Below, one piece after another: positions 39,761 through 39,845 of a DNA stretch of 64,000 nucleotides. Each line of letters opens with the position of its first letter. Position 1 is the first letter of the stretch. The stretch spans positions 383-64,382 of the forward strand of contig JAJEHN010000027.1 in the NCBI GenBank assembly GCA_022823665.1. Reading direction: 5' to 3'. Below the pieces are notes generated by a model, which did not search any database, was not told the origin of the DNA, and saw only the letters and a program-made list of their open reading frames with translations. Made by a program: the position numbers and the translations under genes. The DNA comes from Thermoanaerobaculia bacterium. Its GTDB lineage: Bacteria; Acidobacteriota; Thermoanaerobaculia; Multivoradales; Multivoraceae.

Positions 39761-39845
39761 TGGGCAGCGACCCGGCCGGATTTGAAACCGGCATCCCGCC
39801 TTGGTTCCTTGGCGCGTCTTGACCTTAGACGAAAGGGTCGCTGCC
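39761..39845 (-). ncRNA. tRNA-like structured element (non-canonical cloverleaf)
   Basis: 11-bp closing stem GGCAGCGACCC/GGGTCGCTGCC followed by CA; D-like arm CGTCT-AAGGTCA-AGACG; arm CGCC-AAGGAACCAA-GGCG; T-like arm GCCGG-TTTCAAAT-CCGGC. Confidence 0.6.

Follow-up and report, generated by a model that had tools for sequence, protein, structure and literature searches.

We analysed a stretch of 64,000 nucleotides (nt), called the window below, from a Thermoanaerobaculia bacterium (assembly GCA_022823665.1, contig JAJEHN010000027.1, positions 383 to 64,382 of the forward strand). It contains a type I-E CRISPR system whose genes, assigned with Pfam, are encoded on the minus strand in the order cas3, a 511-nt gap, a gene at the cas8e position, cas7, cas5, cas6e and cas1. 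An element shaped like a transfer RNA (tRNA) lies within the 511-nt gap between cas3 and cas8e, at 39845..39761 (-). Our comparisons indicate that this element is real, selectively maintained and derived from a tRNA whose elbow it has kept. It cannot decode, having a stem of 4 base pairs (bp) and a 10-nt loop in place of the anticodon arm, and it belongs to no family of decoding tRNAs, transfer-messenger RNA (tmRNA), YrlA/Y RNA or Rfam. We tentatively propose that it acts in cis, as an elbow module in the transcript of the Cascade operon.

The element folds as a cloverleaf and is conserved

A sequence-only reading of the window had described an 85-nt cloverleaf on the cas sense strand, with an acceptor-like stem, D-like and T-like arms and a non-canonical loop at the anticodon position. 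We found all of these details in place. The minimum free energy and centroid structures from RNAfold were both identical to the described cloverleaf (-43.3 kcal/mol, shuffle mean -28.9, z = -4.33; 0 of 200 shuffles were as stable). The same cloverleaf was obtained with RNAalifold from an unguided MAFFT alignment of six homologues. The acceptor-like stem of the window copy consists of 11 bp (39845-39835 with 39773-39763) and is followed by CA (39762-39761). The D-like arm (39831-39815) carries GG inside its 7-nt loop. The arm at the anticodon position (39814-39797) has a 4-bp stem and the 10-nt loop AAGGAACCAA (39810-39801), without U33. It is followed by a variable region of 4 nt (39796-39793) and by a T-like arm (39792-39775) of 5 bp and an 8-nt loop. 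The stem length and the 8-nt T loop given earlier hold for the window copy and do not extend to its relatives, where the stem has 12-13 bp and the T loop is in some cases shorter. Set against these relatives, the 3' strand of the closing helix is one G short in the window copy, and the T loop there carries an additional U. The T loop has the canonical 7 nt in two relatives that also lie in cas leaders (class 1) and in the copies found at another locus (class 2, described below).

We wanted to see how far this structure is conserved. The 511-nt gap was matched in five other genomes among the 60 relatives searched, every one of them from the same genus. By DNA search, a leader copy of the element was detected in seven of the 42 species genomes of the genus, the window's own included, and each time in the same place. 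In six class-1 sequences, 95.5% of the alignment cells pair in the cloverleaf and five pairs are changed on both sides. In ten sequences from both classes, 94.1% of cells pair and both-sided changes are seen in 18 of 26 pairs (0 of 500 shuffles reach this; slid controls, 29-43%), in an alignment that was fitted to the model and whose sequences are related (about five class-1 and one or two class-2 lineages), so that the numbers overstate independence. Since it is conserved with covariation, the structure is far beyond chance. A covariance check over homologous loci had been proposed together with the cloverleaf, and its outcome is in favour of a conserved structure.

The alignment of ten sequences contains 28 invariant columns. 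Almost all of them belong to the D arm, together with the one U that precedes it, to the T loop or to the 10-nt loop; the few columns elsewhere are the outer end pair of the 4-bp stem, the innermost pair of the T stem, one A of the variable region and a C of the closing helix near the 3' end. In tRNA numbering the invariant set comprises U8, G10-C12, A14, A15, one G of the GG, A21, G23-C25 and U54-U55-C56..A58. The elbow nucleotides of tRNA (U8, A14, the D-loop GG and the T-loop UUC..A) are therefore represented by the invariant columns 20, 26, 27, 29, 32, 67-69 and 71 of alignment A2, the assignment of columns to tRNA numbering being our own mapping. The consensus of the 10-nt loop in the ten sequences is R-A-N-G-A-R-C-N-A-M, in which A2, G4, A5, C7 and A9 are invariant, position 6 is a purine and positions 3 and 8 are free. 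The loop of a shortened class-2 copy (L050) fits the same consensus. The variable region has 4 nt in 9/10 sequences and contains an invariant A.

We also observed that the leader copy of genome G036 (L006 1441-1530 (+)) holds three tandem copies of a 28-nt unit, which is made of the inner 5' strand of the closing helix and the D arm. The last of them is still able to form a shorter cloverleaf (71-77 bits). The triplication could be a real duplication or an assembly artefact of this metagenome-assembled genome (MAG).

The element is tRNA-derived and does not decode

ARAGORN found no tRNA gene in the entire window and called no tmRNA there. No Rfam 15 family matched the element at its gathering threshold; the best match (Twister-P5, 15.9 bits, cut-off 37.6) is noise, and no member of the Rfam tRNA clan matched at E<=10, whether 901 nt or 116 nt were searched. 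A class-2 copy reached 14.2 bits with Rfam tRNA-Sec (cut-off 47), and ARAGORN called no tRNA at the class-2 loci L020, L021 and L043. A decoding tRNA has a 7-bp acceptor stem with discriminator base and CCA; here the stem measures 11 bp in the window and 12-13 bp in the relatives, and the bases after it are unconserved. The 5-bp anticodon stem with a 7-nt loop and U33 is replaced by 4 bp and 10 nt in 10/10 sequences. The earlier judgement that the element is unlikely to be a decoding tRNA is borne out by these results.

A covariance model built from the element (R1) was run over 57 genomes of the family. Seven matches at 71-112 bits were the leader copies, and three at 38-47.5 bits (L043, L020, L021) were not tRNAs according to ARAGORN; a large number of further matches scored 26-34 bits. 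Genuine tRNAs scored at about 26-37 bits: a tRNA was present at 15 of the 17 weaker loci checked (ten Cys(GCA), three Glu(CTC), two Thr(GGT)). Because the model recovers genuine tRNAs, we consider the element itself to be tRNA-derived.

Class 2 was found in four genomes, as three full-length copies and the shortened one, all of them at a non-CRISPR locus. The closing helix of this class has a wholly different sequence and is again 12-13 bp long (up to 15-16 bp with one mismatch); the middle stem and the T stem also differ from class 1. Common to both classes are the D-arm core, the T loop and the 10-nt loop motif with its GARC core. In blastn comparisons of the two classes, only the core from D arm to T arm was similar (E about 1e-5 to 1e-6), the closing helices were unrelated, and no significant homology was detected between the flanks outside this core. 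Such a full replacement of the helix sequence at conserved length is hard to explain without selection.

The leader is probably under Cascade autorepression

The features of the gap and its surroundings are given below; all of them are on the minus strand.

40125..42716 (-): cas3, 863 amino acids (aa); Pfam Cas3_HD, DEAD and Cas3-like_C_2; stop codon 18 nt upstream of the promoter -35 box
40079..40107 (-): sigma-70-like promoter (TTGACA, 17 nt, CATAGT), the single promoter-like site predicted in 39550-40200
40059..40078 (-): protospacer-like target of the mini-array spacer, directly after the -10 box; the preceding 3 nt are AGT
39638..40000 (-): 120-aa open reading frame (ORF) spanning the element, no Pfam match, judged non-coding
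39850..39878 (-): hairpin A, GC-rich stem-loop of about 11-12 bp, 5 nt upstream of the element; consensus fold of five loci
39761..39845 (-): tRNA-shaped RNA, cloverleaf by RNAfold and RNAalifold
39713..39748 (-): hairpin B, two-part stem-loop between element and mini-array; consensus fold
39674..39702 (-): degenerate repeat psiR1, a hairpin and an 8-nt end like a 5' handle (ATAGACCT); its 3' part matches the CRISPR repeat end ATAGACCC
39654..39673 (-): mini-array spacer, 20 nt, partial match to the promoter-side target
39625..39653 (-): degenerate repeat psiR2, CCCCGC/GCGGGG hairpin kept; ends 11 nt before the cas8e ATG
38021..39613 (-): gene at the cas8e (cse1) position, 530 aa, no Pfam match; so named because of its place between cas3 and cas7/cas5/cas6e
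31959..33542 (-): CRISPR array, 61-nt period, 27 repeats by pattern; on the minus strand the repeat starts GGTTCC and ends ATAGACCC

The element is located in the leader of the Cascade operon, which is about 460 nt long, downstream of the targeted promoter and upstream of the mini-array and cas8e. Six aligned loci have a common order: promoter and target, a poorly conserved stretch, hairpin A, the element, hairpin B, psiR1-spacer-psiR2, about 11 nt, and cas8e. L012, which lies outside those alignments, keeps the order with another hairpin upstream and with the target about 45 nt downstream of the -10 box. The promoter-like site (TTGACA-17-CATAGT) is the single one in 39550-40200, for which shuffles average 0.1, and no terminator-like site was predicted in the same interval. 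With one promoter-like site and no terminator-like site predicted, the element would most simply be co-transcribed with creR (the mini-array) and cas8e. The -35 and -10 boxes are aligned in four of six loci (window, L002, L005 and L006); in L003 and L004 the -10 box is kept and the -35 box is degenerate. Genome G010 has the same promoter arrangement.

The window target is identical to the spacer at 18/20 positions, with mismatches at positions 6 and 9. Among eight loci (the seven with the element and G010), 15-21 of 20-24 positions match, and positions 6, 12 and 18 account for most of the mismatches. Spacer and target co-vary in 8/8 loci, the first five bases changing together between genomes. 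The 3 nt before the target (40059-40081 in the window, and seven relatives) are AGT in five loci and otherwise ATT, AGC or AAT. The spacer has 20 nt in the window and in L002, which share a clean 12-nt gap equal to two 6-nt steps, and 32 nt in L003, L004, L005, L006 and L012. A 20-nt guide that keeps its match would still bind but probably would not license cleavage. A co-varying partial spacer match at a promoter is the signature described for CreR and other regulatory mini-arrays; therefore it is very likely, judging from sequence, that transcription of the leader is under CreR-type autorepression by Cascade. The earlier description of a non-decoding tRNA mimic between a targeted promoter and a mini-array agrees with the 18/20 match and with the co-variation in eight loci.

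Hairpin A shows both-sided changes in its inner stem among five loci; it has no U tract and was not called as a terminator. In the inner stem of hairpin B, CGAT/ATCG is changed to GGAT/ATCC in L005 and L006 and pairing is kept. Given two flanking hairpins with both-sided changes, the whole leader may be a larger structured unit.

As a separate observation, the loop bases GGAACC of the window copy (39801-39810) exactly complement the first six repeat bases, GGTTCC, of the array at 31959-33542. The repeats of the window and of five relatives bearing the element all start with GGTTCC, so that these six offer no covariation with the loop.

The second class occupies a syntenic non-CRISPR locus

Three of the genomes with class-2 copies (G030, G061, which is 88% complete, and G018) have no Cas8e match, while G001 has both classes. 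The class-2 locus is syntenic and consists of a divergent Sel1-repeat gene, about 400 nt, a conserved block with a Shine-Dalgarno (SD) sequence and an 8-codon ORF, 13 nt, the element, a hairpin and a convergent HigA-family gene. The Sel1-repeat gene was identified by Pfam at the L043 copy, and the HigA-family antidote gene (Pfam dnstrm_HI1420) was checked at L021 and L043.

An AAGGAG-type SD sequence and an 8-codon ORF precede every class-2 copy, ending 13 nt before the element (L043 3096-3150 (-); L020; L021; L050). At codon 3, three of these mini-ORFs have AGA and the fourth has ATA. In the genome of the window AGA occurs 1.4 times, ATA 0.6 times and TCA, the preceding codon, 1.2 times per 1000 codons, which places them among the rarest. 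In CreTA systems, the toxin CreT is repressed by a CRISPR-type guide, and its recipe comprises an SD sequence, a start codon, rare codons and a stable structure (PMC8501985; statements on published systems refer here and below to the accessible text of the papers cited). The CreT homologues described there show an AGA/AUA swap, and their mini-ORFs hold two consecutive rare codons (PMC8501985). The class-2 locus recalls this recipe because an SD sequence and a mini-ORF with a rare codon directly precede a structured element. Each class-2 mini-ORF has a single AGA or ATA and no two consecutive rare codons. We therefore regard the likeness to the CreT recipe and to the AGA/AUA swap as a lead, not as a result. 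The class-2 locus of G001 contains no match to the G001 spacer seed at up to 3 mismatches. The possibility that this locus is a second CreR target was dropped after this empty search.

Several further observations were made at this locus. The HigA-family gene convergent on the element lies at 2343-2642 (+) in L043 and at 1771-2103 (-) in L021. Upstream of it there is no evident toxin-like partner in L043; in L020 and L021 it is preceded by a 99-aa ORF, of which the L021 copy has no Pfam match. The shortened copy (L050 2652-2734 (-)) ends right after the T loop, in a deletion that has also removed the 3' end of the convergent HigA-family gene and whose junction has a few bases common to both sides. 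Upstream of class-2 copies (L043 3200-3400 (-); L020; L021) lies a tandem series of two to four units, each of about 61 nt, which is also the period of the I-E array. Each unit contains a short inverted repeat and an end faintly like the psiR1 handle; it is the whole units that repeat, and the similarity to psiR1 is short. These units could be decayed CRISPR repeats or operator sites for a protein.

The element appears restricted to one genus

For the distribution of the element we used a two-class covariance model (R2) with a threshold of E<=1e-5. It matched 11 of the 42 genomes of the genus. One of these matches (G019) was a real tRNA-Glu, which leaves ten genomes, seven with a leader copy and four with class 2, G001 having both. 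A 43-bit match in G018 is probably the L050 copy. Among 151 genomes sampled from the order, this type of search gave no match outside the genus except for a real tRNA-Gln. A pattern scan of one genome per species returned nine stretches, all confirmed by the model, in records titled Thermoanaerobaculia, Candidatus Multivorans, Acidobacteria or Vicinamibacteraceae MAGs. The same scan gave five stretches in metagenome contigs (best 25.5 bits, none convincing) and one stretch in viral contigs (0 model matches); the pattern demands the exact consensus of D arm and loop, so that divergent relatives are missed. By blastn, the element had no match in phage and plasmid collections. Within reach of these searches the family appears narrow and confined to one genus. 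In public sequencing runs the stretch was found in DNA runs only (five, of which four are possibly its own source) and in no RNA run.

A homologue of the protein at the Cas8e position was present in 10/42 genomes of the genus, and seven of those ten have the element. The closest Cas8e relative, in G027 (L063), is 89% identical and intact, and about 20 nt separate cas3 and cas8e in that genome. We considered whether G027 has a broken Cascade that had lost a toxin and rejected this, as the TAG codon is merely an earlier stop, at residue 519 of 528. In G015 (L071; Cas8e 39% identical) there is no element, and the gap holds two hairpins resembling degenerate repeats, which point the opposite way to cas8e. 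At 11 other I-E loci (three in the genus and eight in other genera of the class), 0/11 gave a model match or an ARAGORN tRNA. The element thus seems to be an accessory insert of one I-E clade that is dispensable for the circuit.

Comparison with known systems

The element resembles CreT in being small, structured and non-coding and in lying downstream of a promoter that is partially matched by a degenerate mini-array. In terms of the sequence, therefore, the promoter is one matched by a CreA/CreR-type guide. The CreTs described in the accessible literature are RNAs with a rare-tRNA-sequestering mini-ORF, RNAs acting by a hairpin and start codon, and proline-codon RNAs (PMC8501985; PMC10097628; 10.64898/2026.06.02.729485), and none of these is a tRNA mimic. 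The element also differs from them in sharing its presumed transcript with creR and cas8e and in having homologues away from CRISPR. Two testable features of CreT are lacking. The combination of SD sequence, start, consecutive rare codons and stem-loop is absent, the element having no conserved start and the ORF starts of class-1 leaders being unconserved. The co-occurrence with its CRISPR-Cas system does not hold for class 2 in G030, G061 and G018. The setting of the element is of the CreR type and a CreT-like mode of action is possible, yet it fails on these two points. Two candidate translation signals within it were rejected: the ATG of the variable region, which is ACG in L012 and absent in class 2, and an SD-like reading of the 10-nt loop, which lacks GG in some copies.

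Regulatory mini-arrays of type I-E share with the present locus the position between cas3 and cas8e, a spacer partially matching the cas8e promoter, and mismatches at every sixth position, which are reported for type I regulatory guides (10.1101/2023.03.10.532045; 10.1101/2023.03.03.530964). For E. coli and Salmonella, those descriptions place an AAG-flanked target on the downstream side of the mini-array and, as far as their text goes, name no tRNA-like insert, whereas here the target lies upstream, overlaps the -10 box and start, and has no AAG.

Natural tRNA-like processing elements exist, among them 3'-end signals of the mascRNA type. Like these and the t-elements of Haloferax, the present element is a tRNA-shaped module embedded in a longer transcript by a CRISPR RNA (crRNA)-like gene and has retained its elbow. 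The use of tRNA-like elements to release crRNAs in Haloferax is, however, engineered (PMC4946936). In our element the D arm and the loop are conserved beyond the needs of processing, and the stack of acceptor and T stem is 5-6 bp too long for enzymes that use it as a ruler. Instead of the tRNA-length stack of 7 + 5 bp that marks RNase P/Z punctuation, the stack here measures 12-13 + 5-6 bp.

Bacterial Y RNA (YrlA) is likewise non-decoding, mimics D and T arms and has a long helix formed by its 5' and 3' ends. The arms of YrlA are permuted, with T before D and a closed acceptor hairpin (PMC4201824), whereas the element has the order D, middle, T as in tRNA. No match to the TROVE/Ro60 domain (PF05731) was found in the genome of the window (96.7% complete), and control genomes responded. 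A Y RNA identity was rejected because there is no Ro60 gene, the arm order is that of a normal tRNA, and Rfam gives no match.

The tRNA-Glu, tRNA-Gln and tRNA-Cys genes of the genus have D and T arms close enough to be found with the element's model (26-37 bits). They differ from it in the 7-bp acceptor stem, in place of a closing helix of 12-13 bp, and in the anticodon loop, where the element has a 10-nt loop without U33; the element also encodes no CCA at the right place.

The sequence-only reading knew of no described case of such an RNA, and this still stands: our literature search turned up no tRNA-like element described for a cas leader or for the neighbourhood of a mini-array, the supplementary locus figures of mini-array papers being outside its scope.

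Possible functions of the element

We assign a rough probability of 0.4 to the reading that the element is a cis-acting tRNA-elbow module governing the processing or stability of the leader-CreR-cas8e transcript. When the promoter fires, the element would be transcribed along with creR and the Cascade genes, and its long closing helix would allow it to fold independently within the long transcript. The elbow module would then set the handling of the leader in cis, possibly as a docking or entry site for enzymes that recognise the elbow (RNase P, RNase Z, the CCA-adding enzyme, tRNA modifiers), as a stable block against decay that depends on the 5' end, or as both. The fate of the upstream leader would in this way be uncoupled from that of the pre-CreR/cas8e RNA, and a stable tRNA-shaped by-product might be released. 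The elbow has been kept, and therefore something that reads the shape of a tRNA probably matters. The closing helix could be either an anti-determinant against normal end-processing and charging or a clamp for folding inside a long RNA. As the loop motif is conserved while its positions 3 and 8 are free, a specific partner may read the loop.

Several results weigh against this cis-acting module. A conserved loop that implies a partner means that a purely structural role is probably not the whole story, and a role in processing or stability alone does not need the conserved D arm and loop motif. Ordinary end-processing at the base of the stem is doubtful, because RNase P relies on a fixed distance measured from the elbow, distance is likewise used by RNase Z and by the CCA-adding enzyme (PMC4919913), a 7-bp acceptor stem is given as a major RNase P determinant in a paper on Y RNA (PMC4201824), and a 12-13-bp helix puts the end 5-6 bp beyond the distance measured. 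This weakens the plain RNase P/Z processing signal that had been offered as the alternative to a toxin. In G027 the promoter, the element and the mini-array are gone as one block; in G010 (Cas8e 59% identical) promoter, target and mini-array are present and the element is absent. Any cis role would be dispensable, since the I-E circuit appears to work in G010 without the element and in G027 without the module. The class-2 copies stand at the 3' end of another transcript region, with no cas leader. Both the co-transcription and any cleavage are our inferences, and hairpin A, should it be a terminator without U tract, could alter the picture of the transcript.

Among the alternatives, the element could be a non-toxic tRNA mimic acting in trans, which, whether it is released or not, binds a specific partner through its elbow and conserved loop and thereby reports or tunes some process while the promoter is active. 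An identical core in two unrelated transcript contexts speaks for this, as do the invariant loop positions A2, G4, A5, C7 and A9 beside the free positions 3 and 8, and the 4-nt variable region in nine of ten sequences. In one version the GAA or GAG of the loop (both glutamate codons), on a body like that of tRNA-Glu or tRNA-Gln, could pair with the anticodon of tRNA-Glu; the element's model does match tRNA-Glu and tRNA-Gln genes. In another the loop core GAAC could pair with the GGTTC start of the CRISPR repeat in pre-crRNA, a start shared by the window and five relatives that bear the element. The candidate pairings span just 3-6 nt. The repeats show no variation, there are genomes with class-2 copies that lack this I-E system, and tRNA-Glu is abundant, which makes titration hard. 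We hold this mimic to be unlikely, yet worth keeping in view.

The sequence-only reading had favoured an RNA toxin controlled by CRISPR. The mimic would be kept low by CreR-guided Cascade, and on loss or inhibition of Cascade (for example by an anti-CRISPR) it would accumulate and jam one step in the handling of tRNA, at RNase P, the CCA-adding enzyme, a synthetase, a modification enzyme or the ribosome, making the cell dependent on Cascade. The position of the element is right for this: the promoter upstream of it bears a partial spacer match that co-varies, the arrangement by which CreTA is regulated (PMC8501985), and the use of one guide for both toxin repression and Cas autorepression is on record (10.1101/2023.03.10.532045). 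The over-long helix might make it a poor substrate and possibly a good binder of enzymes that measure the elbow. The class-2 copies adjoin the HigA-family antidote gene and follow the SD sequence and 8-codon mini-ORF with AGA (3/4) or ATA (1/4). The step from this position to a toxin is not supported. No separate promoter or terminator was predicted for the element, which leaves one copy per Cascade mRNA, an awkward arrangement for a toxin. Class-2 copies are found in G030, G061 and G018, where Cas8e is not matched, and no CreR-type target is seen at the class-2 locus of G001. G027 has an intact Cas8e and no module, and G010 has the circuit and no element. There is also no conserved start in the element, and the class-2 mini-ORF has one AGA or ATA in place of the two consecutive rare codons of CreT (PMC8501985). 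A toxin function is unproven and somewhat disfavoured by these comparisons, and we consider this version rather unlikely. A broader version would be a new kind of RNA toxin or decoy under repressor control, in which the long helix clamps elbow-measuring enzymes, or the GAR loop clamps tRNA-Glu, and the RNA stays unprocessed. CreR-guided Cascade would hold down the copy at the cas locus, the HigA-family repressor maybe that at the second locus, and a block of Cascade would stall growth. To this we give slightly less credit still, and call it improbable.

A decayed tRNA or a relic of an integration site, without present function, was named in advance as a result that would speak against the RNA having a role. 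The element is clearly tRNA-derived, it is known from one genus only, and some copies are damaged (the 28-nt unit present three times in L006, and L050 cut after the T loop). Nevertheless, 18/26 pairs keep their pairing through both-sided changes, a helix of 12-13 bp is kept in two classes that share no helix sequence, and the invariant columns lie in functionally meaningful loops; a relic would lose such features, and we think it very improbable. Finally, the element could be part of a small protein gene (the 120-aa ORF, 40000..39638) or of a shorter leader peptide reading into it. The ORF is present, and a purine run like an SD sequence with an ATG is found at similar places in 5/7 class-1 loci. 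It has no Pfam match, however; L005 and L006 lack the start, which is displaced in L004 and L012, the frame is changed by indels of 18/19 nt and of 1 nt inside the element, and L003 and L012 read the element in another frame than the window. Long ORFs are common at this high GC content (18 kb contain 76 ORFs of >=90 aa). A coding role is therefore scarcely credible.

Significance

In summary, these results suggest a new structured RNA of a known general kind, the tRNA mimics, in a new setting. It is compact (about 90 nt) and known from MAGs of one uncultivated genus. Mini-arrays that mediate autorepression of Cascade are already known, and what else such leaders carry is new ground. The same module is reused at a second, non-CRISPR locus beside a regulator of the antidote type. 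If the element is a device for processing or stability, it would be a natural counterpart of the engineered use of tRNA-flanked crRNAs. A decoy or toxin function would make it the first tRNA-mimic effector under transcriptional control by CRISPR; were that reading true, this genus would have a tRNA-mimic CreT and, at the second locus, a pair of an RNA toxin and a protein repressor.

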